Positions 11,863 through 32,135 of a stretch of 40,569 bases of DNA are shown here, one piece after another. The notes below the pieces were generated by a model. The model was not told the DNA's origin. It did no database searches and saw nothing but the letters and a program-made list of their open reading frames with translations. The translations under genes were made by a program, and so were the position numbers. Each line of letters begins with the position of its first letter. Position 1 is the first letter of the stretch. This stretch comes from an uncultured Bacteroidales bacterium (GTDB lineage: Bacteria > Bacteroidota > Bacteroidia > Bacteroidales > JAADJA01), in the NCBI GenBank assembly GCA_964408535.1, contig CAYOZZ010000144.1, positions 1 to 40,569 of the forward strand, in the 5' to 3' direction.

Positions 11863-11884
11863 GTAACTGTTTTACCAGGGTCTA

Positions 11885-13621: not shown

Positions 13622-13623
13622 TA

Positions 13624-15598: not shown

Positions 15599-15616
15599 TT
15601 ATTGAAAGTTTTTACG

Positions 15617-16231
15617 ATGCAATCCGACAAAAACAATATGCAGACAGCAGATGATTCCAAAACACTTGAGATGCTTTATCAAAAGTATTCATCAAAAATG
15701 TACGGAATTTGTCTGAGATTTGCAGGAAATACAATGGAAGCTGACGATATTTTGCAGGAAGGTTTCATTAAGGTATATACAAAACTCAAATATTTCAGGA
15801 ATGAAGGATCATTAGAGGGCTGGATAAGAAGAATATTTGTTAATACTGCAATAAATTATTACAGGAAAAAATCGAGATACGCATTTAACGAGGATTTGGA
15901 AGATGTGCATTTCAATACTGCAAAACCGGAAAGCAGTTACAGTGATCTGCTTTCGAAGGAGGAACTGGTAAATCTTATTCAGAGTTTACCAAACGGATAC
16001 AGGACGGTTTTTAATTTAAATGTTGTTGAAGGATACACACATAAGGAAATTGGTGAGATGCTCGGAATATCCGACAACACTTCAAAATCACAATTAACAC
16101 GTGCGAAAAGTATTTTAAAAAAGAAAGTTCTTTCATTAATGAAGGAAAAAGTTAAAGTACCGTTTAACGATTTCAGGGTGATCAGAAACGAAACAGTCAG
16201 TTTGAGACAGGAATTACAGAAAGCTGTTTAA
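15617..16231 (+). CDS. ECF-type RNA polymerase sigma-70 factor with no adjacent anti-sigma gene
   Basis: ORF 15602..16231 (TTG). An ATG at 15617 is in frame. Region 2 EADDILQEGFIKVY...GWIRRIFVNTAINYYRK. Region 4 YTHKEIGEMLGISDNTSKSQLTRAKSILKK. Confidence 0.8.
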   Translation: MQSDKNNMQTADDSKTLEMLYQKYSSKMYGICLRFAGNTMEADDILQEGFIKVYTKLKYFRNEGSLEGWIRRIFVNTAINYYRKKSRYAFNEDLEDVHFNTAKPESSYSDLLSKEELVNLIQSLPNGYRTVFNLNVVEGYTHKEIGEMLGISDNTSKSQLTRAKSILKKKVLSLMKEKVKVPFNDFRVIRNETVSLRQELQKAV

Positions 16232-16413
16232 TTTTTCAACATTACCCAATAAAAAATAATATTTTTCGTTACATTTATGGCACGCAATTTGATAAAGCTA
16301 TACATAAATACAACGTTCTTTAAAAATTAGAAGTAAGGCTTCTCTCCCTTAATTGGTTTTGGTTAATAATTAGGTTTATTCTTTTCTTTTCTATTGTAAT
16401 GCCTTACTTTTAA

Positions 16414-16447
16414 ACCGGTGGAGGTAAAATCCTTCACCGGTTTTTTT
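16414..16447 (+). terminator. Intrinsic terminator
   Basis: ACCGGTGGAGG-taaaat-CCTTCACCGGT followed by a run of 7 T. Confidence 0.7.
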
Positions 16448-16493
16448 ATTTTCCTTGTTTATAACTATTTATAAAACATTAACATTTTGAAAC

Positions 16494-16501
16494 TATTTTT
16501 G
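16494..16501 (+). promoter_or_regulatory. -7 promoter box (TAttTTTG) for guaA
   Basis: tatttttg lies 23 nt upstream of the ATG at 16524. Confidence 0.45.
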
Positions 16502-16523
16502 CACGCCAAAAACAGGTCATAGC

Positions 16524-18053
16524 ATGCAGGAAACAATAATAATATTAGACTTCGGTTCACAATACACTCAACTGATAGCCAGACGGGTACGAGAGCTTAA
16601 TGTTTATTGTGAGATACATCCGTATAACGCAATTCCTGAAATAAACGGGAACATTAAAGGTGTCATTTTATCAGGAAGCCCATATTCCGTACGTGATAAT
16701 GATGCTCCTGTCCCGGATTTGTCATTAATTCGGAAAAAAATTCCAATTCTTGGAGTTTGCTATGGTGCTCAACACCTTGCCAACATTGACGGTGGTGAAG
16801 TTATGCCTTCAAAAATCAGGGAATACGGAAGGGCTAATCTCTCATTTATCGACAGTTCAAATGAATTAATGAAAGGAATGACCGGCGGTTGCCAGGTATG
16901 GATGTCGCACGGCGATACAATATTAAATATTCCTGACAATTATAAGATAATAACCAGCACAGCCGATGTTAAAGTCGGCGGCTTCAGGATTGAAGGTGAG
17001 GAAACCTGGGGAATTCAGTTCCACCCGGAAGTTTATCATACTACCGAAGGAATGACACTGTTAAGGAATTTTGTAGTTGACATTTGCGGATGCTCTCAAT
17101 CATGGACACCCGAATCATTTATTGATACGACTATTTCTTCTCTAAAGAAAAAACTCGGAAACGATAAAGTAGTCCTTGGACTATCAGGCGGTGTTGACTC
17201 GTCGGTTACTGCGGTTTTACTGCACAAGGCAATCGGGAAAAACCTGACATGTATATTTGTTGATAACGGGCTCCTGAGAAAAAACGAGTTTGAATCGGTA
17301 CTGGATTCATACAAACATATGGGACTCAACGTTATCGGCGTTGACTCGAAGAAAAGATTTTACAAGGCTCTCGAAGGAATTACCGATCCTGAACTTAAAA
17401 GAAAAGCCATCGGGAATACATTCATAGAAGTGTTTGACGATGAGGCACATAAGATTCAGGATGTAAACTGGCTTGCCCAGGGAACAATCTATCCTGACGT
17501 CATAGAATCAAAATCTGTTAAAGGGCCGTCGGCAACCATAAAATCGCATCACAATGTGGGAGGTCTGCCCGATTTTATGAAACTGAAGATTGTAGAACCT
17601 TTAAACACTTTGTTTAAGGATGAAGTACGCAGAATCGGTAAAGCACTGAAAATGGACGGAAGTCTGCTCGGACGCCACCCGTTTCCCGGGCCGGGCCTTG
17701 GAATCAGAATATTGAGCGATGTTACGGAAGAGAAAGTGAGAGTTCTTCAAGAGGCCGACCATATCTTTATCGAAGGGCTGAAGAATCACGGACTATATGA
17801 CAAAGTCTGGCAGGCAGGCGCAATTCTGCTCCCTGTTCAATCGGTCGGTGTTATGGGAGATGAACGCACTTATGAAAATGCAATCGTATTGCGTGCCGTG
17901 GAATCAACTGACGGGATGACAGCCGACTGGTCACATCTGCCTTATGAGTTTCTTGCTAAAATCTCAAATGAAATCATCAATAAGGTAAAAGGAGTTAACA
18001 GAGTGGTTTATGATATAAGTTCAAAACCTCCTGCTACAATTGAATGGGAATAA
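16524..18053 (+). CDS. guaA: GMP synthase (glutamine-hydrolysing)
   Basis: 509 aa. GATase start [18 protein letters not shown], catalytic GVCYG. ATP-PPase P-loop [10 protein letters not shown]. Conserved C-terminal dimerisation domain ending PPATIEWE. Confidence 0.95.
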
Positions 18054-18085
18054 TTACGTTAGTTATTATCAAACTGCTTAAGAAA

Positions 18086-20410
18086 ATGCAAAGAAGGAAA
18101 ATTTTATACTCGCTGATACTCATAATCGCAATACTGATAACCGTACCGGGGCTTTCGCAGAATGTATCCGTAAAAAAAACGGAAATAATTGAAAATATTG
18201 ACGGAACAGACTATTATTTGCATTTTGTAAAAAAGGGTCAGACATTATATAATATTGCCAAAGCCTACAATGTTACTGTCAATGATATCTTCAAAACAAA
18301 TCCGGCAGCCGAATCAGGTATCAAAACAGGTATGGTTTTGAAAATTCCGGTTAAAACAGTTGTGGAACAAAATGCAAATAACAAAACCTCTTCAAAAGAT
18401 AAAAATTTTTATTATCATATTGTTAAACCCAAGGAGACATTTTACGGACTTTCAAGGAGTTACAGCATCACGATTGAGGAGATAAAAAATGCAAATCCCG
18501 GAATTGGTGATGTTTTGAAAGAGGGAACTGTTCTGAAAATTCCGAAACATACATCCAAAACCCGGACAGTCGTAAATTCCTCAAAAACACATAGAGTTAC
18601 AGCAGGTGAAACCCTGTACGGCATTGCAAAACAATATAATGTAACAATAGGCGCCATAAAAAATGCAAACCCGGGATTAACCGACAAACTTGATATCGGG
18701 CAGGTATTGAAAATTCCAGAACAGGAAACCGAAGCGGAAACCGTATTGCAGGAAAAGGTTCGGAAAAAGAAACCGCAGTTTATAACACATACGGTTGTTT
18801 CGCACGAAACATTATATCAGATTGCAAGAAATTATGCCGTCGGTATTGATACCCTGATGCTTTACAACCCGGGGCTTTCAGAGTATATCTATACAGGACA
18901 AAAAATAAAGATTCCGGTTACTCATTCAACAAAAAATTACATTACACACACTGCACACAAGAATGACAAACTAAAAAAGATTGCCAAAAAGTATGATATT
19001 AGCTACACTTCTTTAACACAGATTAATCCGGGTATTTCAAATAAGGTAAAAAAAGGCCAGGTAATCAAGATACCTGTAACCCGTCAAGAAATTCCTGAAA
19101 AAACGGAACAGCAGGAGGAGATTCAGCCTGAACCTGTATTAGGCCCCTGTTCAGATATTGCCGGAAACAGAGAGAAAGTTTATAATGTAGCTCTTATGCT
19201 GCCGTTATATCTTGAACAAATTGACAGTATTGTCCCCGGTGAAACCATACCTTCCGGATTTAAACCTTTCAGATTTATTCAGTTTTATGAAGGATTTATG
19301 ATGGCAGTTGACTCAATGAAAAAAGCAGGAATGAATGTTAACATTTTCACTTATGATGTTGACAATACACCTGAAAAGATTGACAAGATACTTCAGACCT
19401 CCGAACTCAGCAGTATGGATGTTATCATCGGGCCGTTCTACGCGAGAAGTTTCCGTAAAGTGGCTGCTTTTGCAAAGACCTACGGTATAAAAATCATTAA
19501 CCCGTTATCATCTCGTGAGGAGATTATTCTGAACAACCCTTTCGTGTTTAAAATAAAACCCACCCTTGCGAGCCAGAGCGACCTGCTTGCGTCTTATATT
19601 GAAAAGGCATATCCCGAAAGTAATATCCTGATAGTCAGACACAACAAATATAAATTCCAGACCTTTGTCTCTTATGTCCGGAACACACTCAACCTTAACA
19701 GGGAAATGCATGTTATAATTAAAAATGACGTCATCGAAAGTAAACTGAAAAGCATCGAAGCCAACAATAAACTATACACCGAGAATATGCTTCTCGACAG
19801 GGAACAACTCCAAAGGACCCCTGAAGGAAGTACAACTTTCAGTAATATGGTTAAAGAAGTTATTTACTCCGAAGACAGTCTGACAGGTGTTAAACTGAAT
19901 CTTTCATTAGTCAGAAACAATGTTGTTATCATTCTGAGTGAAGATAAGTCATTTTCACAGGAACTCTTGTCACGTCTTAATAAACTTTCGGCAGATTATG
20001 ACATAAATGCAATCGGACTACCGGAATGGGGCAAGTTTGATGACCTTGAAACGGAGCCTCTTTTGAACCTGCATCTTCAGATTTTCAGTGAGAGTTATAT
20101 TGATTATGAAGAGAATAACACACTGGACTGGATAAAGAGTTACAGAGAAAAATTCAAAACCGAACCTTCCGTCAAAAAGTATGCTTTTGACGGATTCGAC
20201 ATAGGCTGGTACTTCCTGAATGCACTTTACAATTACGGCAGAGAATTTGAACAATGTATTGATAATATGGATATTACACTAATGCACACAAAATTCAAAT
20301 TCAAACATACTCCGGGAAACGGTTTCGAAAATACATACTGGAATATCTGTCGTTTTGAGGATTACACAATTGTAAAGATTCCGTTTGAGGAAACCGAACC
20401 ACAAGAGTAA
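18086..20410 (+). CDS. Five-LysM-repeat protein fused to a periplasmic-binding-protein (type 1, Leu/Ile/Val-binding-like) domain
   Basis: ORF 18044..20410. The Met at 18086 gives the signal peptide MQRRKILYSLILIIAILITVPGLSQ. Five LysM units each end in ...G(Q/T/M)(V/K)(L/I)KIP. The C-terminal ~400 aa look PBP1-like (YNVALMLPLYL...). Confidence 0.7.
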   Translation: MQRRKILYSLILIIAILITVPGLSQNVSVKKTEIIENIDGTDYYLHFVKKGQTLYNIAKAYNVTVNDIFKTNPAAESGIKTGMVLKIPVKTVVEQNANNKTSSKDKNFYYHIVKPKETFYGLSRSYSITIEEIKNANPGIGDVLKEGTVLKIPKHTSKTRTVVNSSKTHRVTAGETLYGIAKQYNVTIGAIKNANPGLTDKLDIGQVLKIPEQETEAETVLQEKVRKKKPQFITHTVVSHETLYQIARNYAVGIDTLMLYNPGLSEYIYTGQKIKIPVTHSTKNYITHTAHKNDKLKKIAKKYDISYTSLTQINPGISNKVKKGQVIKIPVTRQEIPEKTEQQEEIQPEPVLGPCSDIAGNREKVYNVALMLPLYLEQIDSIVPGETIPSGFKPFRFIQFYEGFMMAVDSMKKAGMNVNIFTYDVDNTPEKIDKILQTSELSSMDVIIGPFYARSFRKVAAFAKTYGIKIINPLSSREEIILNNPFVFKIKPTLASQSDLLASYIEKAYPESNILIVRHNKYKFQTFVSYVRNTLNLNREMHVIIKNDVIESKLKSIEANNKLYTENMLLDREQLQRTPEGSTTFSNMVKEVIYSEDSLTGVKLNLSLVRNNVVIILSEDKSFSQELLSRLNKLSADYDINAIGLPEWGKFDDLETEPLLNLHLQIFSESYIDYEENNTLDWIKSYREKFKTEPSVKKYAFDGFDIGWYFLNALYNYGREFEQCIDNMDITLMHTKFKFKHTPGNGFENTYWNICRFEDYTIVKIPFEETEPQE

Positions 20411-20557
20411 CCGGCAAATATATACTGACGAAGCCGGTATGTGAAAAGGTTAACCCGAATTATGCAATAGCAGGTCTTATCCTGAAATAGGTTGCCAGAG
20501 AAAATGAGAAAGCAACCGAAGACGGACTATCCTTTCATTAGTCTCTTCTCCCGGGCT

Positions 20558-20735
20558 GTTCCGGATTTAAGCGCCGGCACGTGGGTAAGCCTAATCCGGA
20601 ACCAAATATAATCCGGATTTGCAATCCGGCAAAACAACCCGCCCACAATCTCCGGATGACTGCTCTATGCTGACAAAAGGAAAAATTGAATTGTAATCCG
20701 ATTGATTGCACCGGAGTCATCAGGAGATTTAGCCC
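20558..20735 (-). ncRNA. Candidate structured RNA or MITE-like element, copy 1 (homologous to 39990..40160 on the plus strand)
   Basis: On the minus strand, AAUCUCCUGAUGACU (20729..20715) pairs with AGUCAUCCGGAGAUU (20661..20647). The same two boxes occur in copy 2. There are extra perfect hairpins: CCGGATT-tgc-AATCCGG at 20613..20629, and GTTCCGGATT (20558..20567) with AATCCGGAAC (20593..20602). Class unknown. Confidence 0.3.
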
Positions 20736-20848
20736 GAAAGAATCCCTGTAGGGACGACCTTTTTGTAACACTTGAACGCTGTTCGCAGGGCAAGTCCAAC
20801 GCTCCACCGCTCTTTCCTCTCCTATAGGGAATGGATAAAGGTATTGCT

Positions 20849-21574
20849 CTACGGCTCTTTCGTCATCACCAAAGTTATTACAAAGTCAATGTAATCGGTA
20901 AATAGAAAACTGTCGTCGGTCTGGGGATAGTTTTTTGAATAAATCGTTATTCCCCAGGCTGTCCGGTTTATTGAGAAACGTTCCGATTTTGCATACAAAG
21001 TATCATTCTTAATCGTTATTGTACTGATAAAGGAGACAGGTTTTACAATATCCTTAATTTTCAAATCGCCGTTTATCCGGTATCTGTTGTCACCTTTACC
21101 GGTAACACTACTAATTTTGAAAACGGATTCGGGATATTTCTTAACATCAAAAAACATATCCGATTTAAGAGTATTCTCAAGAGTGGCCTTCATTAAATAG
21201 TAATCAATATCAATATCAACAATACTGTCCATTAATATTTCAAAATTACCGCCGGTAATTTTGCCGTTATTAATTGTAATATTTCCGTTTTTCAACAAAA
21301 CATAGCCCTTATGTACAACGCAGTACCAATCCAATTTGCTTGCATTAAGGTCAACGGAATACTTTCCGTCCGGCAACTTTGCCGACGGAGCACCGGAATA
21401 ATTTGAACCGGAGTCGGTAACAGCTTGCTGAATCGGTACTTCTTCTTTAACCGGACTTGGATTTTGTTGATTATCAGGCTTTTTATCCTTCCCGGAATTG
21501 TTGCAGGAGGCAAAAAAAGCCGTTACAAAAACCGTAAACAATATCAATCCGGTATGAACAATACTTTTTTTCAT
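20849..21574 (-). CDS. YceI-like (polyisoprenoid-binding family) lipoprotein
   Basis: ORF 20849..21628. The Met at 21574 gives MKKSIVHTGLILFTVFVTAFFASC (lipobox). YceI-like motifs: DMFFDVKKYPESVFK, INGDLKIKDIVKPVSF, FSINRTAWGI. Confidence 0.65.
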   Translation of the reverse strand: MKKSIVHTGLILFTVFVTAFFASCNNSGKDKKPDNQQNPSPVKEEVPIQQAVTDSGSNYSGAPSAKLPDGKYSVDLNASKLDWYCVVHKGYVLLKNGNITINNGKITGGNFEILMDSIVDIDIDYYLMKATLENTLKSDMFFDVKKYPESVFKISSVTGKGDNRYRINGDLKIKDIVKPVSFISTITIKNDTLYAKSERFSINRTAWGITIYSKNYPQTDDSFLFTDYIDFVITLVMTKEP

Positions 21575-21575
21575 T

Positions 21576-22508
21576 TTAATCTTTATTTTCACCTTTAAAG
21601 GCAACACCTGTAATACGTCCGTCAACAATCATTTCTTTTATGGTTTCAGGAATATTTTTAGCACCTTCAAAGATAGTATTTTCAAATTCGGCACCAAAAA
21701 AGTTCACTCCTTTCAAATCGGCTCCCGTAAAATCGGCACCCTGAAGATGAGAACCCTGAAGATTGGCATACAACAACCTTGAGTTGATAAAAGTTGCGTT
21801 TTCAAGTCCTGCGCCGGTAAAGTCGGAATAGCTGAAATCAACAGAGTCCAGTTTTGAACCTTGCAGGACAGCCCTGAATAATTTTGTTTTAACAACAGTG
21901 CTTCCCGTAAAATCGGCGTGCAGAAATTCGGAATCTTTCATAAGCGATCCGGTAAAGTTGCAATTCTTTAAACTTGCCCTGTGGCCTTCCATCCCGAACA
22001 TATTAGCACCTCTGAAATCGGTGCTGTCGAGAACGGCTTCCGTTACGTGCACATGAAAAAGTCTGGCTTGTTTAAAATCGCAATTTGTCAGGTTTGAATT
22101 GTCGAATGTTGTCCAGCGAATATCGGCAACCCTGAAATCGGAACCTGCGAAATCACCGTTTGAGCACACTGCCGATCTGAAACTTGCCCCCCGGAAATCG
22201 CTGTTGTTTGCAACTGCCCCGTTCCAGTAAACATTGTCGAGATTTTCTCTTCTGAAATCATCTCCCGGCTGTGGAATCGGGATAATTCCCCTTTTGCGTT
22301 CCTTTCCGTCTATCAGCGGTGCAGGTTCATTTATAATAGCTTCAACCTGATCATCTTCGAGAAAATTTGCAACCTCAAACATATTTGTTGTGTCGGGAGG
22401 ATATGGGAAAAGATCGTTTCCCTGTTCAGTGACTTCAGCCCTGTTATTGCAGGCTGTAATTAACGCTGTAACGACAAAAGCAAATAATATATTTATGCGG
22501 ATGTTCAT
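21576..22508 (-). CDS. Pentapeptide-repeat lipoprotein
   Basis: 310 aa. Lipoprotein signal MNIRINILFAFVVTALITAC. About 40 consecutive A(D/N)LxX-type pentapeptides (for example ANLQGSHLQGADFTGADLKGVNFFGAEFENTIF). Confidence 0.8.
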   Translation of the reverse strand: MNIRINILFAFVVTALITACNNRAEVTEQGNDLFPYPPDTTNMFEVANFLEDDQVEAIINEPAPLIDGKERKRGIIPIPQPGDDFRRENLDNVYWNGAVANNSDFRGASFRSAVCSNGDFAGSDFRVADIRWTTFDNSNLTNCDFKQARLFHVHVTEAVLDSTDFRGANMFGMEGHRASLKNCNFTGSLMKDSEFLHADFTGSTVVKTKLFRAVLQGSKLDSVDFSYSDFTGAGLENATFINSRLLYANLQGSHLQGADFTGADLKGVNFFGAEFENTIFEGAKNIPETIKEMIVDGRITGVAFKGENKD

Positions 22509-22519
22509 CTTCAGCCTGA

Positions 22520-23395
22520 TTAAATTATATCGTTTCTGTTAAAATGCCTGTTTCCCAAAAAGCCGAGTAACCCACCGAGCAGGACCGGATATGCAATTGC
22601 AAAAACAATAAATACATTCCGTGTGACAATATCAAGAATATAATAAGATGCCGGCCCCATAACAGTCAGTTTAGGGTCGAAAAGTGCAAGCACTGCCGTT
22701 CTGAAAACCTGCAAAGGATTTATCATTCCAACGCCAATTACGATTTCAGGGTTCATCCTCATTTTCAGCATTATTCCCATAAGCAACAGGTCGAGAAAGG
22801 CAACAAGTATCAGCCAGATGATAAATGCCGAACTGACTGCCATATCCTGGGAGCGTGCTACGGACGAAATAAACATCCCTATACCGAGAAAGCAGAAGAC
22901 CATTGCTCCGAGAAGAAAACTGTAATAAGTAAACAAGTCCCACGGAACATCTATATTTGTAATGGTTCCCCAGATAGCAGCTCCGAGCAATGCAATGAAT
23001 ACCGGTACATAAATTACAATGAACCTGCCGATAAATTTCCCCCAGAAATAACCTGTAAATGAGACAGGTAGCGATAAAATGTATTCCATAACATTCGACT
23101 CCCTGTCACCAACGACCGATCTGACTGTTGAGATAAGCACATATATCGGCAGAATAACCATACTCACCTGCATAAATGTTACCATCAGCCTGCTCAAACC
23201 TACAAATCCGATTATCTGGGACTCGGTTATCCCCATTGCGAACATTACCGCTACAAAACCACCGAACAGAAGACTGTAAACCCAGAACCATCTTGACCGC
23301 AGGTTTTGTCTTACATCAAGTATTGTTATTTCTTTTATGCTTTTATCCATTTTATACTTTTTTGTGAAAGACAATTCTTGAATTGTCTTTACCAA
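22520..23395 (-). CDS. ABC-2 permease, NosY-like by context
   Basis: 291 aa, six TM helices. Alternative start at 23350 (MDKSIKEITIL). Lies in an operon with a NosL-like lipoprotein and an ABC ATPase. Confidence 0.65.
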   Translation of the reverse strand: MVKTIQELSFTKKYKMDKSIKEITILDVRQNLRSRWFWVYSLLFGGFVAVMFAMGITESQIIGFVGLSRLMVTFMQVSMVILPIYVLISTVRSVVGDRESNVMEYILSLPVSFTGYFWGKFIGRFIVIYVPVFIALLGAAIWGTITNIDVPWDLFTYYSFLLGAMVFCFLGIGMFISSVARSQDMAVSSAFIIWLILVAFLDLLLMGIMLKMRMNPEIVIGVGMINPLQVFRTAVLALFDPKLTVMGPASYYILDIVTRNVFIVFAIAYPVLLGGLLGFLGNRHFNRNDII

Positions 23396-23421
23396 ATCCG
23401 ATCTATCCTATTACCTTTTAA

Positions 23422-23487
23422 TGTGACAAGCGTCCACGCTGTCAACCCCTACCCTACTCCACATTGTGACAAGCGTCCAGGCTTGAT
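23422..23487 (-). repeat. Two REP-like hairpin copies between the nosL-like and nosY-like genes
   Basis: tgtgacaagcgtccacgctgtca (23422..23444) and tgtgacaagcgtccaggcttgat (23465..23487). Confidence 0.55.
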
Positions 23488-23497
23488 AACCTACTAT

Positions 23498-23965
23498 CTA
23501 TTTTTTATCCATCATCTTATGCTTCTTTATAAAATCCTCCCTCATTGTTTTTCCCTCTTCAATTCTTTTTATCATTGTATTGAAATCATAAGTCGAGTCC
23601 CTTTTCTCTTTCAAGGCACCGTAACCGTAGCCCATTGGCGTAGTATCGCCGAATCTGTACCAGGCTTTTGTTGCGTCAATCCATTCTCCGGTTTCACAAT
23701 CTCCAATCCATATTTTTGCGGTTTCACCGTTGAACTTTTTCCAATCGTCACCCTTCATATATTCAACCAGGCAGCCGATATCGTCAAACCAGATAACATC
23801 TTCATATTTGTTAATTGCCTGCACCGAATACTTCTGGTCGGCAAGCCCCATCAGGCATTGTGCACATACATCCCTGTCCCAGTTTATTTCACGGGGACTC
23901 TGGTCGGGCTCCGAACTACAGGCGAACCCCAACACTACTATTAATAATACAAATATTTTTTTCAT
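23498..23965 (-). CDS. nosL: NosL-family copper chaperone lipoprotein
   Basis: 155 aa. Lipobox LGFAC. DVCAQCLM metal motif near the N-terminus, FDDIGCLVEY, and TPMGYGYGA, all characteristic of NosL. Confidence 0.7.
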   Translation of the reverse strand: MKKIFVLLIVVLGFACSSEPDQSPREINWDRDVCAQCLMGLADQKYSVQAINKYEDVIWFDDIGCLVEYMKGDDWKKFNGETAKIWIGDCETGEWIDATKAWYRFGDTTPMGYGYGALKEKRDSTYDFNTMIKRIEEGKTMREDFIKKHKMMDKK

Positions 23966-23980
23966 AATTTTTATTTTTTA

Positions 23981-24008
23981 ATTGCGACAAGCGGCCACAC
24001 TTGTCAAT
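23981..24008 (-). repeat. Third REP-like hairpin copy, between the nosF-like and nosL-like genes
   Basis: attgcGACAAGcggccacaCTTGTCaat. Confidence 0.5.
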
Positions 24009-24012
24009 TATT

Positions 24013-24660
24013 TCAATTAACTTTTTTATCAACCGTAATTTCACCCAAATCCATTTCCACAACCCTGTTTACCAGCATCGAAATTTCATTCATCCTGTGG
24101 CTGCTCAGTATCATAAGAGCATTTTTTGAAAAATCCTGCAGCTTTGCAAACAAAATTTCACGTGCGGCAGGGTCAAGATTTGCCGAAGGTTCATCCATCA
24201 GTAATATTCTCGGTTCTCTTCCGAGAGCAAATGCAATTAATAACTTCTGCTTCATTCCTCCCGACAATTTAAAGAACGGTTTTGAAAGATTATCTTCAAT
24301 ACTAAGCCCCATTGAATGACTAATTTCAATAAACTTATCCCTTCCGGTATTTGTTATTTTCGAGATAAACTCAAGCAACTCTTTCACTGTCATTTTTAAA
24401 GGCGGGGGTGTCTGGGGGACAAAACCGACCTTCTGAAGTATTTCCTTCCTGTGCAGCCGTGGATTCATACCAAGGACATCCAGCTTGCCGTCAAATACAT
24501 ATTGCCCGAGGATACAACGAATCAGCGTTGTTTTCCCGGCACCGTTTTGCCCGATAAGTGCAACCCGTTCACCTTCCAAAAAATCGGTAGTCAGGTTTTT
24601 TACAACCGTTAACTTTTTAAAGGATTTTGACAATCCGTCAATCTTTATCAACTCTTCCAA
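24013..24660 (-). CDS. ABC transporter ATP-binding protein, NosF-like by context
   Basis: 215 aa. Walker A GQNGAGKTT, signature LSGGMKQK, Walker B LLMDEPSANLD. Confidence 0.8.
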   Translation of the reverse strand: MEELIKIDGLSKSFKKLTVVKNLTTDFLEGERVALIGQNGAGKTTLIRCILGQYVFDGKLDVLGMNPRLHRKEILQKVGFVPQTPPPLKMTVKELLEFISKITNTGRDKFIEISHSMGLSIEDNLSKPFFKLSGGMKQKLLIAFALGREPRILLMDEPSANLDPAAREILFAKLQDFSKNALMILSSHRMNEISMLVNRVVEMDLGEITVDKKVN

Positions 24661-24679
24661 ATCTGTCTCTCTTTTTGAA

Positions 24680-25609
24680 TTAAACTAATTTATCAAGTCC
24701 TTTTATTGAAAATTTCAGTGCTTCGCCCGGACAAACGTCAACACAAAGGCCGCATCTCGTACAGTCGGAACCGGTATAATGTACTTCGTCAGTTGCTTTT
24801 CCCCGTTTTACAAACCAAAGAGTATGAGGAACAAGACAAACATCCTGACAATCAGTGCAGTGAGCACATTTGTCAAGTTCAAATTTAATCCCGAGCGGAG
24901 CAGCCTTTCCGGTGATAGACCACGTTGCCCCGACAGGACAGACATAGCGGCACCAGAATCGTTTGCTGTACACAATCTCAAATAAAAGAACAGCAAGAAC
25001 CCAGAGCAAAATCAGCCCCGGTCCATAAATCATACTACGAGAAACAATCCCAACCATATTAATGTTTTCAAAAACTATATTTTTTGTTAACAATGCCAGC
25101 AAAAGAAACCCTGCCCAAAACACAAAACGCAGTCCGATATTGAATGTATGTTCCTTGATTTTCTTTTTCTTAACAAGATAATTATGCAGTTTTTCAGTCA
25201 TTTCGGCCAGGAAATGGTACGGACAAATCCACGAGCAATATGTCCTGCCTCCCATAATGCTTAAAAACAGAATTGTGAAAAACCCTATCCAGAAGTTCAT
25301 TGTCAACGACGGAAGGTAACCGCCGGGAATTGATATCAGAATAACCTGAAGGGCATTAAATGTATCCATCAGATAGAACCCTATCAATCTGGAGCCGCTC
25401 AGCGAGCCTTCAAGTATTGAGAGGTCGAAAGCAAATGAAACGACGAACATCAGGTTGATAGTCAACAAGGCTGCCCATCTGATATTTCTCCATTTATGTT
25501 TGTTTTTATGATTGTCGTGCCACTCTTTGTACGGAATACCGATTTTGGCATTAGGAAGCTGGTCTTTACTTTTCGGGGGTAACGGTGTCTTATTTTTATT
25601 TCCAAACAT
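24680..25609 (-). CDS. NapH/NosH/MauN-family membrane polyferredoxin (putative quinol dehydrogenase subunit)
   Basis: 309 aa, four TM helices. Two CxxxCP motifs (CSWICP, CRYVCP). Two C-terminal 4Fe-4S motifs (CAHCTDCQDVC, CTRCGLCVDVCP). Confidence 0.75.
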   Translation of the reverse strand: MFGNKNKTPLPPKSKDQLPNAKIGIPYKEWHDNHKNKHKWRNIRWAALLTINLMFVVSFAFDLSILEGSLSGSRLIGFYLMDTFNALQVILISIPGGYLPSLTMNFWIGFFTILFLSIMGGRTYCSWICPYHFLAEMTEKLHNYLVKKKKIKEHTFNIGLRFVFWAGFLLLALLTKNIVFENINMVGIVSRSMIYGPGLILLWVLAVLLFEIVYSKRFWCRYVCPVGATWSITGKAAPLGIKFELDKCAHCTDCQDVCLVPHTLWFVKRGKATDEVHYTGSDCTRCGLCVDVCPGEALKFSIKGLDKLV

Positions 25610-25614
25610 AGCGC

Positions 25615-26424
25615 TTACGATTTAATGGGTTCAACAACAATACTCGGTTCCTGTGTGGGACAAACCATAACGCATACACCGCATCCGGTACAGCCGTCCA
25701 AAACTTTCGGTTTGAAAGTCCCGTTGTTTTCGTCCATAACAATGGCCGTTTCACCGATTGGGCACTCCGTTACACATAAGTCGCAAACTTCACTGTCGAA
25801 GTTGTGTTCGCTGACAGGTGACGGTTTAGGATCTCCCGTTCGCGGTGAACGGTAAATACCCTTGAAATCATCACCTCTCGGTGTTCCTTTAAAGCCCTGA
25901 CCTTTAACGGCAAGGCAGGTTTTTTCGTTAACTTTTGCTATTCCCATCCTCACCTTTGTCTTCATCGCCTTAATCTGCACTTTGAAAGGATTGAAATCAG
26001 GATCGTTATAATCGTGGGTCTTTTCGTACTCGGCAATTGCCTCTTCACCGGCATCTTTAAATTGCTTGAAATAAAGAACGGCAGTGGGACATGTTTCGAC
26101 ACACTGAAGCGAATCGCAGGAGAAGTCGCAAGCCTGCGCCCTGACATCAATGTAAGGTGTGCCGTAAGATAAACCTTTCTCAATCCCTGCAAGTTTGATT
26201 GCCTGTACCGGGCATATCTGAACACATAATCCGCATTTTATACATCCGAAAATGAACTCATCTTCGTCAATCGCACCCGGAGGCCTCAGAAAATCCTGTG
26301 TTCTGGCATTCTCTCCGTGGAGCTTTTTGAGATATCCGACACCCGCACCGACAGCCGCAAGTGCCGTCACTGCTACAGCGCCTGATTTTAAGAAATCGCG
26401 TCTGTTAATGTCTGTTTTAGCCAT
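25615..26424 (-). CDS. NapG/NosG/MauM-family periplasmic 4Fe-4S ferredoxin with Tat signal
   Basis: 269 aa. Twin-arginine signal NRRDFLKSGAVAV. LRPPGA motif. Cys clusters CIKCGLCVQICP, CDSLQCVETCP, CDLCVTECP, CTGCGVCVMVCP. Confidence 0.75.
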   Translation of the reverse strand: MAKTDINRRDFLKSGAVAVTALAAVGAGVGYLKKLHGENARTQDFLRPPGAIDEDEFIFGCIKCGLCVQICPVQAIKLAGIEKGLSYGTPYIDVRAQACDFSCDSLQCVETCPTAVLYFKQFKDAGEEAIAEYEKTHDYNDPDFNPFKVQIKAMKTKVRMGIAKVNEKTCLAVKGQGFKGTPRGDDFKGIYRSPRTGDPKPSPVSEHNFDSEVCDLCVTECPIGETAIVMDENNGTFKPKVLDGCTGCGVCVMVCPTQEPSIVVEPIKS

Positions 26425-26450
26425 AATATGTGAATTAAATTTTGTTGAAG

Positions 26451-26458
26451 CAAAGGTA
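26451..26458 (-). promoter_or_regulatory. -7 promoter box (TAccTTTG) for the napG-like operon
   Basis: Plus strand reads caaaggta, 27 nt upstream of the ATG at 26424. Confidence 0.4.
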
Positions 26459-26502
26459 AGTGTTTTTAGTTTAGATATGCAATAAAATTAAATATAAAAA
26501 GT

Positions 26503-26553
26503 GTTATACCACCTGTAGTTTTATGGCAAAAATACATTTTCCGGTGGTATAAC
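26503..26553 (-). terminator. Long-loop hairpin downstream of the TonB-dependent receptor (terminator or processing site)
   Basis: gttataccacc (26503..26513) pairs perfectly with ggtggtataac (26543..26553) over a 29-nt loop. On the minus strand it is followed by a U-rich tract. Confidence 0.4.
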
Positions 26554-26573
26554 ATATTAATCATTCAAATAAA

Positions 26574-28655
26574 TTAAAATCTGTAGGTTGCACTTATATT
26601 AAAGCTGAGGCCGGGTTCGTAGAACAAGGAATTTGTTTCCGGTCCCATATTTTTGTATGCACGACTAAGATGCTCTACATAATTGTTGTTCAGCAAATTT
26701 GCTATTGATGCTCTAATCTCAAATGAACTGACCGGTTTGTAGGTAGCACCCAAATCAATAACAGCCCAGCCCGGTGTGGTTGTTTCCGCAAAACTTGAAG
26801 CTACCCTCGTTTGATCAGCGGCAAAACGCACTTTAATCATTGCCTCAACCTTATCAGAAAAATATTTAAATGATGCATTTCCCGAGAAAGGAGGAGTTTC
26901 GGGCAAAGGCTCGTCCCAGGTAATATTCTGGGCATAAGTATATCCTCCCGAAGCCGCAAAATTGAGGTGATCAATAAAAGTTATATCAAAGCCAAGCTCA
27001 AAACCGTAAAGCATAGCTTCATCAATGTTTGTAAACCTCTTTGCGTGAGCCGGTGGTTTGCAGGGCATAAACTTCTTGTCAATTGTTGTATCAACAAAAG
27101 CCGTGATATAGTCGGTAACATAAGAATAGAACAGGTCGGCATTAATGTTGAAATTATCAAAGGATTTTTTTGCAATCAAATCTGTCTGATGATTTGCTTC
27201 AGGCTTCAGATTCGGATTTCCGACATATTCATACGCATCCGAACCGACTGCCAAATGGTTTATGAAGCGTTCAAGCAGAGATGCCGATCTTACACCTCTG
27301 CCGACAGCCCATTGTAGTGTAAAATCTTTATCAGGTTGCCACGTTAAAGATGTATTTGCCGAAATGTTAAAGTCATTATCAGGTTGAATATTCCCGTTAT
27401 ACAGTTCGTTGAAATCAGGTGCCGGATTATCAATTTTCACCTCGACAAAGTCGAGCCTGAATCCGACATCCCACATAAGGTTTGAAGAAACCCGGTATTT
27501 GTTTTCAAAGAATAGACCGATGTCAGACGATTTTGAATTTTGCCAAATCAGGTCAACGAAAGATTTCGGTTGTGGCAATGTGTCGCCGGTGCAACTGTTT
27601 ATTTTAACAAGACGGTTTCTTTGCCCGTCTTTATTGATGTAGCCATAGTCAATACCTGCATATTGAATTATCTTGTCACCCGGTCGTAACCCGAATTCAA
27701 GCCTGCCTCCCATAGATTTGGATGTTACAGGTGCAACGGACTCGGTAAAAGCCCAGCTTGGACGCGCACGGGTTGACATTTCATGATCGACATACGAACC
27801 GTAAACCTTTGCCCGCAGTGAAAAGATTAAATCCGAGATGTCATTTGCCAGATAATCTAAATAGAGCATTGAGCTGTTGTCTTTATCTGCGTCCATAGGT
27901 AACCCGGCATGTTTTACATCTTTTGCAAATCCCTGTCTGAGCGTAAGTTGTATCCTGTTTTGTTTGTTCTTGCCGTGGTAATTCCCTATTTTGATTGAAT
28001 AACCTGTCCGGGTAAATGATGACGGTATTTCGGTGCCGTCACCGCTTTTATAGTTCCCGAAATTTTTATAATCGGCGTGAACGGAAAAGTCATAACCTTT
28101 GTTTGCCATCTGTACTCCGGCCTGACCGTAAAAATTACCTCCGTTAGTCATATAACCGCCTTCGACCATTCCCGAAATTTTAAACTTATTGGAATAGCCG
28201 GGGCCTTTGGTAACAAGATTTATAAGCCCGCCGACCGAAGGTCCGAATCTTACACTGTAAGGACCTTTTATCACCTCTATTTTTTCAATCTCCTCTGGCG
28301 AAATTTGCGAAATAGCCGGATCCATACGGTTAGGACAGGCATTGGATGACTTGCTGCCGCCGTCATACTGGACATTTAACTGGCTGTATTTGAATCCCCT
28401 CAATACGGGTTCCATCGCATAGTTGCCTCTCTTTACAATTCCGAAACCTGCTTCATTCTCAAACATCTCGCCCACATCATGAACCTGTTCCGTAGGTAAG
28501 GTCTGAGCCGAAATATTTGTTTTTAAAATGTTCTCGGATTTTCTCCCCTCAACAAATATTTCCTCAAGATAAACGGTGTCGTTTTGTGAAAACAACAGTA
28601 ATGGAGAACTTGCAATCAATATTATAATTAGTAATAATGTTATATTTTTGTTCAT
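26574..28655 (-). CDS. TonB-dependent copper receptor (OprC/NosA-like)
   Basis: 693 aa. Signal peptide, plug domain, terminal aromatic (TYRF). CPNRM (C107..M111, nt 28337..28323) and HEM (H291..M293, nt 27785..27777) match the CxxxM...HxM copper site described for OprC, with similar spacing (184 vs 180 residues). GLPMD motif. Confidence 0.75.
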   Translation of the reverse strand: MNKNITLLLIIILIASSPLLLFSQNDTVYLEEIFVEGRKSENILKTNISAQTLPTEQVHDVGEMFENEAGFGIVKRGNYAMEPVLRGFKYSQLNVQYDGGSKSSNACPNRMDPAISQISPEEIEKIEVIKGPYSVRFGPSVGGLINLVTKGPGYSNKFKISGMVEGGYMTNGGNFYGQAGVQMANKGYDFSVHADYKNFGNYKSGDGTEIPSSFTRTGYSIKIGNYHGKNKQNRIQLTLRQGFAKDVKHAGLPMDADKDNSSMLYLDYLANDISDLIFSLRAKVYGSYVDHEMSTRARPSWAFTESVAPVTSKSMGGRLEFGLRPGDKIIQYAGIDYGYINKDGQRNRLVKINSCTGDTLPQPKSFVDLIWQNSKSSDIGLFFENKYRVSSNLMWDVGFRLDFVEVKIDNPAPDFNELYNGNIQPDNDFNISANTSLTWQPDKDFTLQWAVGRGVRSASLLERFINHLAVGSDAYEYVGNPNLKPEANHQTDLIAKKSFDNFNINADLFYSYVTDYITAFVDTTIDKKFMPCKPPAHAKRFTNIDEAMLYGFELGFDITFIDHLNFAASGGYTYAQNITWDEPLPETPPFSGNASFKYFSDKVEAMIKVRFAADQTRVASSFAETTTPGWAVIDLGATYKPVSSFEIRASIANLLNNNYVEHLSRAYKNMGPETNSLFYEPGLSFNISATYRF

Positions 28656-28909
28656 CTGTCGTTAGTTTTTTGTTTTACCATAAAATTAATTTCACCCGGG
28701 GTTTTTATCAGGATACCGTTTGCATTAATCAAGCTCAAAGTCCGGATTAAAATAAATCACCCTGAACCAATATTCAATGCACAAAACATCATTTTGGCAA
28801 AATCCTGATACGTCTGATTTTAAATAAAATATGCTATATGTTTTTGTGAGATAAAGGCGTACCTTTTACTCTACCGGAAAAAACACATAAACCAAAAAAA
28901 CCGAATAAA

Positions 28910-29317
28910 TCAGACTATGCTCCGGGGAGGCGGAGTAAGGGTATCGTAAAATATTTCGATGAGTAAGTTTGGATGCTCATAGAATTTTAACACACAATTA
29001 TGAGGTTTTCGGAGGGTTGTTAAAATCCCTGAGCCAAGATAAATAATATTGTTGAAATCCAGATTCGGTGCAGGCGGCGGTGCGTTGTGTTCCTTCGATT
29101 GCTCATTGTTTACACTACGTTTAATCAAAGCACTTAGATAACTGATGTCACCCACAAGGGTTTTCCGCTCATTTTGCGAAAAACTGTTTTCATCAACAGG
29201 CTGCATCTTTAGTTTTGAGGAAATCTGATGATAGTAATACTGGAGATAAGGAGCGTAAGGTATCATAAAGAATGATACGTAAAACATTAGTAATATGAAT
29301 GCAACTCTCCTTCTCAT
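28910..29317 (-). CDS. Hypothetical membrane-anchored protein
   Basis: 135 aa. N-terminal hydrophobic helix, PPPAP stretch. The TAtaTTTG box at 29326..29333 lies 9 nt upstream. Confidence 0.4.
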   Translation of the reverse strand: MRRRVAFILLMFYVSFFMIPYAPYLQYYYHQISSKLKMQPVDENSFSQNERKTLVGDISYLSALIKRSVNNEQSKEHNAPPPAPNLDFNNIIYLGSGILTTLRKPHNCVLKFYEHPNLLIEIFYDTLTPPPRSIV

Positions 29318-29325
29318 TTCAGGTG

Positions 29326-29333
29326 CAAATATA
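29326..29333 (-). promoter_or_regulatory. -7 promoter box (TAtaTTTG)
   Basis: Plus strand reads caaatata, immediately upstream of the ATG at 29317. This implies a very short leader or none. Confidence 0.35.
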
Positions 29334-29603: not shown

Positions 29604-29764
29604 GCTATTCTGGATTTTTTATGATAACTTTTGCACCTGAATATCCCGGGCAATCCGTGTTAATTCGTGGAATCCGTGGGTATAAAAACTATGGATTGCT
29701 ATGTCCGGCATTGCTTGCGAAGCCTGAGCCACCGCCAAAGACAAAACCAACCTGCCATGATGAC
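29604..29764 (+). repeat. ~160 bp direct repeat, copy A
   Basis: About 92% identical to 31887..32046 (about 12 substitutions and 1 indel by eye). Ends 112 nt before the ATG at 29876. Confidence 0.85.
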
Positions 29765-29875
29765 AAGTCAGGCCGGAATCAAGGGAAGGTCATTTAATTA
29801 TAAAAATTAATTTCCATCTGATACCTATGTAAAAAAATCTTTATATTTTTACGCATAATTATTGATATTAATATT

Positions 29876-31879
29876 ATGTTTAGAATTAAATTAACCGTTT
29901 TATTTATTGCCGGTTTCGTAACGGCTTATGCTCAAAAGTTGGACACAACAGTTTTTAATTCCGTTTTCGAAAGAAAAGCCTTTAACTCTTATGCCGATTC
30001 ATCAAATCCTGATCCGTTAAAATTCTTTTGTGCTGTGAGTTATAAAAAAGGAGCATATGATAATATCCGAAAGTCCATTGATACAATTATGAACGATTTG
30101 TTTGATGAAGGAATTGCAAAAAAACCTTTAAAGAAAAAGGTGAAAATGATTTATAAGAGGGTTCACGAAGATATGTTAAAAAAATATGAGAATAATGTAA
30201 TTTTTAATGAAATATTATATTCGGGAGAGTATAACTGCGTTTCAGCCACAGCATTATATTCTGAAATTCTTGACAAAACGGGTATTAAATATAAAATTTT
30301 AGAGCAACCTGACCATGTCTATATTATAGTTGACCCTGATAATACCAGTATTCTTATGGAAAGTACAAATCCGCAGAAGGGAGTTATTATCTATGATGAA
30401 AGATTTAAAAAAGATTATGTTAAATATCTGTATAGTAATAAATTAATTGCAAAAGATGAATATATCAATAAAAGTACGGATGAACTTTTTAATGAATACA
30501 TGTACTCTGATGCAGAAATTGATAAGTACGAATTAGCAGGACTACATTATTATAACCGCGGTTCGTTTTTTATGGAAAAAGAGGAGTTTAATGATGCTGC
30601 AGCGTGTTATGAAAAAGCTTATTTCCTTTATCCCGGCAGTAAAACAATTGCTTTTTTATACTATATGGCACTCTCTAATGTATTAAACAATGAAGCGGCC
30701 GGGAATGATTTTCATGGTAAAACACTTGCCAAATATGTTAATATCAATATTCATGACGATGTCGTAATGCAATCTTCAGTTGATTTTTTTAAATCAGTGT
30801 TGAATACACTAATTGTTGAGCGTTCTGCCCCCGAAAAAGGTCAGAAATACTATTCGGAGTTTATATCATTTATCAGCGATTCCGTTAATACACAGGAATT
30901 TACTTTTAATTATTACTTTATAAACGGGTATTATTACCTTATTAAAGGAGAATACGAAAAGTCGCTGAATTATGCCGATACTGCATATCATATCCATCCT
31001 GACAATATGCATATTAAAGGAATAATACATGACGATTTCAGCAAAATCATCTTTTCAATGTCACAAACCAATTCAAATGTTTATATTGACACACTGTTTT
31101 ATTATTTCGACAAGTTCCCGTTTCTTTTTGATTATAATTATTTGGAGCAGTTTTTTTATTCAGTATGTTTTTTTAAAACAAAAGAGTATTTCGACCAGAA
31201 AAATGAAAAAGAAGGTACATTATTACTTCAAAAGCTTGATTTAATGCTAACTGGCAATCAGAATTTGGCTTCATCCTACAAGGGAATGAGCGGTATGCTA
31301 TACAGTATTGATCAATATTACAGGTATGACAAACCCAATGCCGATACACTAATATCCGTTTTCTCAAGATATCACAAGTACTTTCCTGATGATTATACCA
31401 TTAAAGCCAAATTGGAGGATATCAAGGAGAGAAAATCAAAAAATAAAAGTTTAAAATATGAAAATGTTTACGACCCGAGGGATGTGTTTCTGCAATTAAT
31501 GAATTTGACTCAGGACGAACAGGTGCAAAAGAAAACTATTCCGGAAGATTACAAAGGAAAGTTTAAGAAAATATTTACAGGTTGCTGGAATTCATCTAAA
31601 TACAAATTATCCGACAGCAATACGTTAAAAGACGGTAAACCGAGAAATATTACAGTAAGTAAGGGTTATCAACTAAAATATACGGTAGATGGCAAAACCA
31701 TCAAAGGTAAATGGTCAATTCGTCCTAAAGAAAAATTATTATATTTTACTTATGGGGATAATTCGGATTATTTGGTCTTTAGTATAGTAAAAATTGAAAA
31801 AGAACAAATAGAGCTTCGTCCCTACAAAAATGACAAGCTTTCAAACAAAATTATCATTTTTAAACCTTGTAAACAATAA
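29876..31879 (+). CDS. Secreted protein with a putative transglutaminase-like Cys-His core, a helical repeat region and a C-terminal beta domain
   Basis: 667 aa. Signal peptide ...VTAYAQ. GEYNCVSATALYSEILDKTGIKYKILEQPDHVYIIV...ESTNP resembles the Cys...His...Asp/Glu core of transglutaminase-like proteases. The function call is tentative. Confidence 0.5.
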   Translation: MFRIKLTVLFIAGFVTAYAQKLDTTVFNSVFERKAFNSYADSSNPDPLKFFCAVSYKKGAYDNIRKSIDTIMNDLFDEGIAKKPLKKKVKMIYKRVHEDMLKKYENNVIFNEILYSGEYNCVSATALYSEILDKTGIKYKILEQPDHVYIIVDPDNTSILMESTNPQKGVIIYDERFKKDYVKYLYSNKLIAKDEYINKSTDELFNEYMYSDAEIDKYELAGLHYYNRGSFFMEKEEFNDAAACYEKAYFLYPGSKTIAFLYYMALSNVLNNEAAGNDFHGKTLAKYVNINIHDDVVMQSSVDFFKSVLNTLIVERSAPEKGQKYYSEFISFISDSVNTQEFTFNYYFINGYYYLIKGEYEKSLNYADTAYHIHPDNMHIKGIIHDDFSKIIFSMSQTNSNVYIDTLFYYFDKFPFLFDYNYLEQFFYSVCFFKTKEYFDQKNEKEGTLLLQKLDLMLTGNQNLASSYKGMSGMLYSIDQYYRYDKPNADTLISVFSRYHKYFPDDYTIKAKLEDIKERKSKNKSLKYENVYDPRDVFLQLMNLTQDEQVQKKTIPEDYKGKFKKIFTGCWNSSKYKLSDSNTLKDGKPRNITVSKGYQLKYTVDGKTIKGKWSIRPKEKLLYFTYGDNSDYLVFSIVKIEKEQIELRPYKNDKLSNKIIIFKPCKQ

Positions 31880-31886: not shown

Positions 31887-32046
31887 GCTATTCTGTATTT
31901 TCATGATGACTTTTGCACCTGAATATCCCGGGCAATCCGCGTTAATTCGTGGAATCCGTAGGTATAAAAACTCAGGGTTGCTATGTCCGGCATTGCTTGC
32001 GAAGCCTGAGCCACCGCCAAAGACAAAACCGACCTGCCCGGATGAC
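31887..32046 (+). repeat. ~160 bp direct repeat, copy B
   Basis: See copy A. Ends 129 nt before the ATG at 32175. Confidence 0.85.
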
Positions 32047-32135
32047 CGGTAAAGCTGGGTATCCGTAACTGAATTTACATCTGATTTACAATTGTAAATA
32101 TTTGTTAAAAGTAATTTGCAGTATGGTTTTATATT

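Follow-up and report, generated by a model that had tools for sequence, protein, structure and literature searches.

What do the accessory genes of a nitrous oxide (N2O) reductase locus serve at a site that encodes neither the reductase NosZ nor NosD? The question is raised by a minus-strand gene cluster on contig CAYOZZ010000144.1 from an uncultured Bacteroidales bacterium (assembly GCA_964408535.1), of which positions 1 to 40,569 make up the whole stretch of DNA analysed here (hereafter the window). An earlier note, made from the sequence alone, had described eight same-strand genes, and these proved to be intact open reading frames (ORFs), free of internal stops, where it had placed them. 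The unit nevertheless comprises nine genes and ends at 29317, because the ORF at 28910-29317, taken at the time for a small unrelated ORF, is homologous to a conserved gene of nos clusters, here termed s, that follows nosD in complete clusters (E values of 1e-11 and 9e-9). The unit reads s-TBDR-nosG-nosH-nosF-nosL-nosY-pentapeptide-YceI (29317->20849; TBDR, TonB-dependent receptor), and its elements are the following (aa, amino acids; ABC, ATP-binding cassette; Tat, twin-arginine translocation):

29326..29333, minus strand: promoter-like motif TATATTTG, read from the sequence, 8 nt upstream of the s ATG.
28910..29317, minus strand: s, small nos-cluster gene, 135 aa; homology to the gene between nosD and the receptor.
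26574..28655, minus strand: OprC/NosA-type TonB-dependent copper receptor, 693 aa; plug and barrel domains, copper ligands aligned.
25615..26424, minus strand: nosG, Tat-exported polyferredoxin resembling NapG, 269 aa; Tat signal RRDFLK, 4Fe-4S dicluster domains.
24680..25609, minus strand: nosH, NapH/MauN-family membrane polyferredoxin, 309 aa; TIGR02163, Fer4_5 domains and synteny.
24013..24660, minus strand: nosF, ABC ATPase, 215 aa, TTG start; ABC_tran domain and position.
23498..23965, minus strand: nosL, lipoprotein Cu(I) chaperone homologue, 155 aa; Pfam NosL near the cut-off, CxxCxM alignment.
22520..23350, minus strand: nosY, ABC-2 permease, 276 aa; ABC2_membrane_2 domain and PDB match to NosY.
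21576..22508, minus strand: pentapeptide-repeat lipoprotein, 310 aa; Pentapeptide repeats, 110 bits.
20849..21574, minus strand: YceI-domain lipoprotein, 241 aa from the ATG at 21574; YceI domain, 65 bits (the longest ORF extends to 21628).
20411..20848, no strand: structured spacer of 438 nt with short interspersed repeats, between the cluster and a convergent LysM gene.

For nosY (23350) and YceI (21574, in keeping with a lipoprotein signal), starts later than those of the longest ORFs are likely, as called in relatives.

The answer that we consider probable, though well short of certain, is that the window carries one part of a split nos cluster which still serves N2O reductase in trans, with the front half situated elsewhere in the same genome; nosZ and nosD would thus most likely still be present in that genome. 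As the earlier note had stated, nosZ, nosD and cytochrome c are missing from the window: tblastn searches using the NosZ (both paralogues), cytochrome c, NosB and NosD sequences of relatives returned no match across its 40.5 kb (E ≤ 0.1). The same searches revealed no remnant of nosZ, the cytochrome c gene, nosB or nosD at E ≤ 0.1 in the other nosZ-less loci that were found (L007, L008 and L010-L013), and the proteins of L083, a front-half locus described below, had no match in the window or in the nosZ-less loci at E ≤ 1.

The genes that are missing here precede the same module in related organisms. Loci of NosL homologues with 55-71% identity read Z-c-B-D-s-T-G-H-F-L-Y-P-I, where Z, c, B and D stand for nosZ, cytochrome c, nosB and nosD, T for the receptor, and P and I for the pentapeptide and YceI genes. 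The survey covered 53 loci of species-representative genomes, retrieved by means of NosZ, and 60 from metagenomes, retrieved by means of NosD. In approximately 70 informative related loci, the module of the window was located directly after nosZ1-nosZ2-cytochrome c-nosB-nosD, in the same order; all nine genes follow nosD in this order in L001-L006, L014, L133 and most of L015-L131. Every surveyed locus with enough sequence past nosD continues into the module, L083 being the exception, and across the approximately 110 surveyed loci the module is otherwise always joined to nosZ and nosD. The order is Z-Z-c-B-D-s-T-G-H-F-L-Y-P-I in Bacteroidales and Lentimicrobiaceae and Z-Z-c-B-D-G-H-F-L-Y-P-I in Flavobacteriaceae, Saprospiraceae and Melioribacteraceae. 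Among four membrane proteins of about 260 aa that were checked upstream of nosD, two contain NHYIGM and GHN, which are motifs of NosB (PMC9697520). Judged by this gene order, the window module corresponds to the standard distal section of the clade II nos cluster of Bacteroidales, a cluster type known from more than 100 public loci, in which only the detachment from nosZ and nosD is unusual. The gene combination, which the earlier note had not known to be described as a unit, is therefore what normally makes up the distal end of clade II nos clusters in Bacteroidota, as those 70 or so loci show, and the comparison of gene neighbourhoods that it had proposed showed conservation of the unit in relatives, directly after nosD.

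The last two genes and s belong to the same picture. The pentapeptide gene follows nosY in nosZ-linked clusters of Bacteroidales, Lentimicrobiaceae, Flavobacteriaceae, Saprospiraceae and Melioribacteraceae, and YceI comes last in all complete clusters whose sequence extends so far, so that the two lipoproteins close the nos cluster in five families of Bacteroidota and Ignavibacteriota-like taxa; because of this recurrence they are regarded as regular cluster members and not as add-ons. The s gene, 91% identical in the relative whose NosL is 88% identical to that of the window, always has nosD on one side and the receptor on the other in Bacteroidales and Lentimicrobiaceae. Its product combines a hydrophobic N-terminal helix with a GDIxYLxA...R motif and with PPP at the C-terminus; no Cys, His or Met is conserved among 55 aligned unique homologues, and no Pfam family was matched. 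In the literature searched there was no mention of YceI, pentapeptide proteins or s together with nos genes, and recent preprints dealing with small nos proteins (nosPQ) or with copper in sulfidic waters were set aside as irrelevant to s or the receptor.

Several related loci depart from the common layout. L053 reads Z-Z-c-B and then holds neither nosD nor the module within 10 kb; L019, L091 and L094 carry two receptor-like genes and a rearranged order of G and H; a gene of the 23S_rRNA_IVP family is inserted between nosH and nosF in L014 (8676-9050); and NosG is extended to 430 aa in L001 (7071-8363).

At the domain level, profile searches (Pfam, NCBIfam) agreed with most of the family labels of the earlier note, and its functional labels, namely outer-membrane copper import, a NapGH-type quinol-linked module, a NosFY-type ABC module and NosL, are supported. 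The nosG, nosH, nosF, nosY and nosL genes belong to the canonical accessory set of clade II nos clusters, and OprC/NosA is already known as a copper importer. The best NCBIfam model for the receptor is TIGR01778 (TonB-copper), as the note had anticipated, with a score of 232 bits that falls below the equivalog cut-off of 472; among PDB entries only OprC was matched (E 2e-35). The copper ligands of OprC, C143, M147, H323 and M325 (PMC8610252), align with C107, M111, H291 and M293 of the window receptor, and these four residues are invariant in 46/46 unique nos-linked receptors. Likewise, the placing of 23498..23965 in NosL stood in part. The protein scored 23.3 bits against PF05573, below the gathering threshold of 24, while 18 of the 25 NosL homologues matched the family (E ≤ 0.01, best 1.1e-7), and P0002, the NosL of the 88% relative, has a precomputed PF05573 match. 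Residues invariant among the 25 homologues include C16 of the lipobox, C34, C37, M39, C65 and M111. The best PDB match of the NosL profile was P. stutzeri NosL, a weak one (E 0.04), in which C34-x-x-C37-x-M39 is aligned with CHVCGM.

For the ABC module, the sole PDB match of the nosY product was P. stutzeri NosY (7o0y_D, E 6e-13, residues 12-235), and a second ABC-2 permease of the window (11013-11831), used as a control, gave no NosY match. P. stutzeri NosF is among the PDB matches of the nosF product (83 bits), with ABCA-family domains scoring higher and no NosF-specific model among the 25 best NCBIfam matches; the assignment of nosF thus follows from its conserved position beside nosL and nosY in nosZ-linked clusters, the sequence alone not being diagnostic. 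The product of nosH scored 223.2 bits against TIGR02163 (NapH/MauN), above the cut-off of 213.05, and nosH is syntenic in all complete clusters. That of nosG remained below the cut-offs of NF007012 (124.6 bits vs 269) and TIGR00397 (86 vs 178.85), with a Tat signal and 4Fe-4S domains present; its positional counterpart in the nosZ-linked locus L133 is 89% identical. Elsewhere in the window, an unannotated 259-aa ORF is followed by an ABC ATPase (298 aa) and an ABC-2 permease (272 aa) on the plus strand (9319-11831), unrelated to nos; the ABC pair (10120-11831) was considered as a hidden NosDFY-like set and rejected, the ATPase being of a generic Drr/lantibiotic type and the permease lacking a NosY match.

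Where the cluster was cut can be located closely. The nosZ-less arrangement recurs in L010, L011 and L013, which are 99.6-99.9% identical to the window, and in the relative L007/L008, whose proteins are 67-97% identical to those of the window (NosL 88%) and whose upstream flank differs from that of the window, homology between window and L007 starting 20 nt upstream of the s ATG. Front halves were found as well. L083 reads Z1-Z2-c-B-D (Z1 and Z2, for nosZ1 and nosZ2) and continues with convergent unrelated genes for 4.65 kb; L135 and L136, from two other samples, are also Z1-Z2-c-B-D front halves, followed by unrelated genes for 7.2 and 0.96 kb. The NosZ of L083 falls in a 90% cluster of which the other informative members are L135/L136 and L133/L134, the latter being a contiguous cluster with both halves joined. 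L133, the closest nosZ-linked relative of the window module, matches L083 over 7432-15170 (amino acid identities of 91% for Z1, 93% for Z2, 84% for c, 92% for B and 91% for D), and this match stops at the nosD stop codon, which ends at 15177. From 15184 to 19104 it matches the window (s 78, T 75 and G 89% at the amino acid level), and L007 matches from 15196. The front and back breakpoints are therefore complementary inside one spacer of 38 nt between the nosD stop and the s ATG, and the front halves L083 and L135 diverge from one another and from L133 right after the nosD stop. On these alignments, the cluster of the window lineage and of its 88% relative is one that was cut in the nosD-s spacer, and the shared breakpoint suggests that the split predates the divergence of the window and L007 lineages.

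The 38-nt spacer of L133 contains TATATTTG, a motif that the window keeps and that reads TATTTTTG in L007. It fits TAnnTTTG, which we take to be the Bacteroidota -7 promoter consensus. With 63 occurrences in the window, where 48 are expected, this pattern is common in the AT-rich DNA, so that a single match is weak promoter evidence and no more than suggestive of an independent promoter for the back half. A scan of the window for sigma-70 promoters and terminators gave matches no more frequent than chance. In L007/L008, an ORF with an IS1595-type zinc-ribbon domain (559-987) is found about 3.6 kb upstream of s, which may be a sign that a transposase acted close to the rearranged junction.

If the two halves still work together, they should be found in one genome, and several observations point indirectly that way. 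L083 (front half) and L008 (back half) derive from one JGI sample, Ga0256913. The tetranucleotide correlation of L083 with the window, L007 and L008 is 0.969-0.971, as compared to at most 0.957 for nos loci outside the clade; three of these lower-correlating loci come from L083's own sample and share homologous genes with it, and L083 has no genes homologous to the window, L007 or L008, nonetheless being closest to these in composition. Identity is 82.9% between the two front halves and 84.8% between the two back halves, as expected if the halves pair up in two genomes. Short intergenic repeats of the window, among 137 sequences totalling 1.77 Mb, match only L007/L008, L012 and L135/L136.

Selection on the module is likewise consistent with a retained function. 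In the comparison of the window with L007, all nine reading frames are intact in both, and the ratio of nonsynonymous to synonymous substitution rates (dN/dS) is 0.02-0.11 for eight genes (0.11 for s) and 0.28 for YceI, at synonymous divergences (dS) of 0.4-2.0; nosY is the most constrained, with a dN/dS of 0.019. Tajima relative-rate tests against the nosZ-linked sisters L017 and L063 revealed no excess of unique substitutions in the window lineage, the counts for the receptor being 44-72 against 45-62 with a chi-square of at most 2.7. Comparisons with L014, L015 or L044 as sister depended on the outgroup and were excluded because these loci are not true sisters for every gene. In the absence of a rate excess, the proteins evolve as they do in nosZ-attached clusters; and since purifying selection includes nosF and nosY, whose known role needs NosD, and no acceleration was seen, the ancestral role in N2O reduction appears to have been kept. 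The synonymous divergence itself forms a mosaic between window 20849-29317 and L007 4603-13067, with dS of about 0.4 for s, the receptor and nosH and of 1.2-2.0 for nosG, nosF, nosL, nosY and the pentapeptide gene, and identity in the s-receptor spacer amounts to 96.5%; a mosaic of this kind suggests that the operon has undergone internal recombination.

The events and functions would then be as follows. The ancestral order nosZ1-nosZ2-cytochrome c-nosB-nosD-s-TBDR-nosG-nosH-nosF-nosL-nosY-pentapeptide-YceI would have been broken in the 38-nt nosD-s spacer, and the back half, from s to YceI, would have kept its own promoter-like element and come to lie among unrelated genes; its neighbours in the window are genes for GMP synthase, a LysM protein, TPR proteins, alpha-amylase and the generic second ABC exporter. 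By analogy with characterized systems, (i) the OprC/NosA-type receptor would import ionic copper across the outer membrane, as OprC-type receptors do (PMC8610252); (ii) NosL would take up Cu(I) and pass it to NosD docked on the NosFY ABC module, so that the copper centres of NosZ are loaded, following the route NosL to NosD on NosFY to NosZ (PMC6530538; PMC8457098) and the NosL/NosDFY delivery in P. stutzeri for which Mueller et al. (2022) is cited in later work; and (iii) NosG and NosH would form a quinol-dehydrogenase module delivering electrons via c-type haem to the reductase, NosGH being credited with carrying electrons from quinol in the direction of the reductase (Hein et al., 2017, as cited in PMC9697520). 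NosD encoded at the other locus would have to assemble in trans with NosFY from the window locus.

A number of observations weigh against such a split cluster. No nosZ or nosD was found on a contig demonstrably from the window's own genome, and there are no nos genes in the 11 kb upstream or the 21 kb downstream of the window cluster. The scan of species-representative genomes gave no contig from the near-identical GCA_054028835.1, which that collection may not contain. Exact look-ups of L083-type NosZ proteins led to samples other than those of window-type loci, and all hits to the candidate NosZ proteins that were looked up (P0142, P0137, P0140, P0246, P0245 and P0250) were from samples other than that of the window locus. 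The link of L083 to L008 consists of a shared sample, composition and complementary breakpoints and not of physical linkage, and the front-half contigs L083 and L135 have no sequence overlap with the window, L007 or L012 except for two short repeats. Finally, the upstream flanks differ between the two back halves and the downstream flanks between the two front halves, so that there were further rearrangements or the split occurred more than once.

These gaps leave room for a stand-alone copper system, which is close to what the earlier note had proposed: nosZ, cytochrome c, nosB and nosD would have been lost, and the back half would serve another cuproenzyme or the general copper supply. The empty 11 and 21 kb on either side accord with this, as do the occurrence of the nosZ-less arrangement in two lineages with different flanks, the purifying selection in both, by which something must be maintaining the genes, and the promoter-like motif of the back half. 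Receptors dedicated to a single cuproenzyme are moreover a recognised concept (CrtA, PMC12914433), and OprC homologues are present in non-denitrifiers (PMC8610252). However, the strongest constraint falls on nosY, and NosF and NosY have no known activity in the absence of NosD; no gene evolves faster than in nosZ-linked sisters, where a new partner or function would be expected to have left its mark; front halves with an exactly complementary breakpoint exist in the same clade, one of them in the same sample as the back-half-only L008; and everywhere else in the survey the module is attached to nosZ and nosD. We therefore regard a stand-alone system as unlikely. Its concrete form, in which the receptor, NosL, a NosD-independent NosFY and a NapGH-type module feed another cuproenzyme or a periplasmic copper pool in a genome without nosZ and nosD, seems a shade more doubtful again; if true, it would mean that N2O-reductase maturation genes had been repurposed.

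It is very improbable that the cluster is a decaying remnant, in which the enzyme genes were recently deleted and the leftovers, though non-functional, have not yet mutated. The absence of nosZ and nosD from the window fits this, and nosZ is patchy among close relatives (PMC9697520). Against it stand the nine intact frames in both the window and its relative at the dS and dN/dS values given above: the lack of any disruption at that dS is incompatible with neutral decay, provided that the split predates the divergence of the two lineages. We give hardly any credence to an assembly or binning artefact, i.e. a chimeric join upstream of s in a cluster that is really contiguous, for although all sequences are metagenome assemblies with repeats near the cluster ends, the window junction was recovered at 99.6-99.9% identity in independent NCBI, two ENA and Logan assemblies, the L007/L008 junction in ENA and JGI assemblies, and the front-half junctions independently in L135 and L136.

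The split cluster in trans, which is thus preferred, has consequences for how such loci are read. In genome scans that recover nosL, nosF, nosY, nosG and nosH but no nosZ, a split cluster should be checked for before a new copper system is inferred. The clean break between nosD and s suggests two separable units, one of the enzyme with NosD and the other of copper and electron supply, and a two-unit cluster would mean that NosD and NosFY assemble in trans. In addition, the presence of an OprC-type receptor with an intact copper site inside the nos clusters of Bacteroidales and Lentimicrobiaceae provides genomic support for the disputed idea that NosA feeds N2O reductase.

The surroundings of the cluster showed further features. 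The 438-nt spacer at 20411-20848, reported in the earlier note as hairpin-rich, exists and folds more stably than its shuffled versions (minimum free energy of -142.9 kcal/mol vs -125.3 +/- 5.7, z = -3.1), with no Rfam match; it also contains an ORF of 89 aa (20538-20807), which is probably not a real gene. Neither Rfam families nor tRNAs were detected in the window. The spacer repeat at 20638-20729 recurs in L007/L008, and its part 20638-20673 in L135/L136; the strain variant L012 has the same cluster with a different downstream flank, diverging at window position 20551. Interspersed repeats are located at 20638-20729, 39963-40010, 40284-40323 and 40443-40514, all intergenic, and copies lie near rearrangement points in L007/L008 (13111-13236), L012 (6337-6408) and L135/L136 (221-459), the short repeats being absent from the other approximately 120 fetched loci. 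The repeat region that had been placed at the s end of the cluster proved to be a 161-nt direct repeat (91% identical; 29616-29776 and 31898-32058), which flanks the neighbouring gene for a 667-aa TPR-like protein (29876-31879) and not the cluster.

Outside the window, the related nos clusters contain two tandem NosZ paralogues with complementary metal sites, both complete in 75 loci. Z1 (about 749 aa) keeps the CuA motif and has all seven CuZ histidine positions substituted; in Z2 (about 795-905 aa), all seven CuZ histidines are retained, the CuA cysteines are missing and a CxxCH haem domain is present at the C-terminus. In unique sequences of Z1 and Z2, respectively, the CuA motif was present in 68/68 and 1/86, DxHH in 0/68 and 76/86, GPLH in 1/68 and 86/86, EPH in 0/68 and 86/86, and the C-terminal CxxCH in 0/68 and 85/86. 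The complementary pattern holds for the 68 unique Z1 and for 85 of the 86 unique Z2 sequences, and no Z1 accompanies the only Z2-type protein that has a CuA motif (L127). Examples are encoded at 3767-6016 and 6058-8457 in L083, 7709-9958 and 10001-12400 in L133, and 1907-4156 and 4198-6597 in L135 (Z1 and Z2, respectively). These motif patterns suggest an obligate Z1:Z2 heterodimer or a haem-fed CuZ subunit. No description of the pair was found in the literature searched, and it merits a separate study.

Compared to characterized systems, the window locus combines familiar components in a different setting. The NosDFY-NosL system of P. stutzeri (PDB 7o0y and 7osf) contains the only solved relative of the window permease, namely NosY. 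It differs in that NosD defines the P. stutzeri complex and no NosD is encoded at the window locus, in the size of the ATPase (308 aa in P. stutzeri NosF, 215 aa in the window), and in that the likeness of NosL to its P. stutzeri counterpart is weak at both the structural-database and the Pfam level. With the NapGH quinol dehydrogenase, the window pair shares a NosH above the NapH/MauN cut-off and a NosG with a Tat signal and NapG-like ferredoxin domains. Unlike NapGH of periplasmic nitrate reductase systems, the G/H pair sits in nos clusters in all relatives; there are no nap genes near the window pair, and its NosG stays under the NapG cut-offs.

The receptor has the plug-and-barrel fold and all four CxxxM-HxM ligands in common with OprC of P. 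aeruginosa and NosA of P. stutzeri. It comes from Bacteroidota and is embedded in a nos cluster, whereas OprC and NosA are from Proteobacteria and their genes are unlinked to nos genes; the association of the window-type receptor with N2O reductase recalls the original proposal for NosA. A further described layout is that of the Wolinella succinogenes clade II cluster (nosZ, B, D, G, C1, C2, H, F, Y, L; Hein, Witt and Simon, 2017, as cited in PMC9697520), with which the window shares NosG/NosH as the electron-transport module, NosF, NosY and NosL, and the window-related complete clusters also NosB, NosD and a NosZ of the Sec type that bears a c-type haem domain. In contrast to W. succinogenes, the order is F-L-Y, an OprC-type receptor and s are interposed between nosD and nosG, the pentapeptide and YceI lipoproteins close the cluster and, in the window, the Z-c-B-D part is detached.

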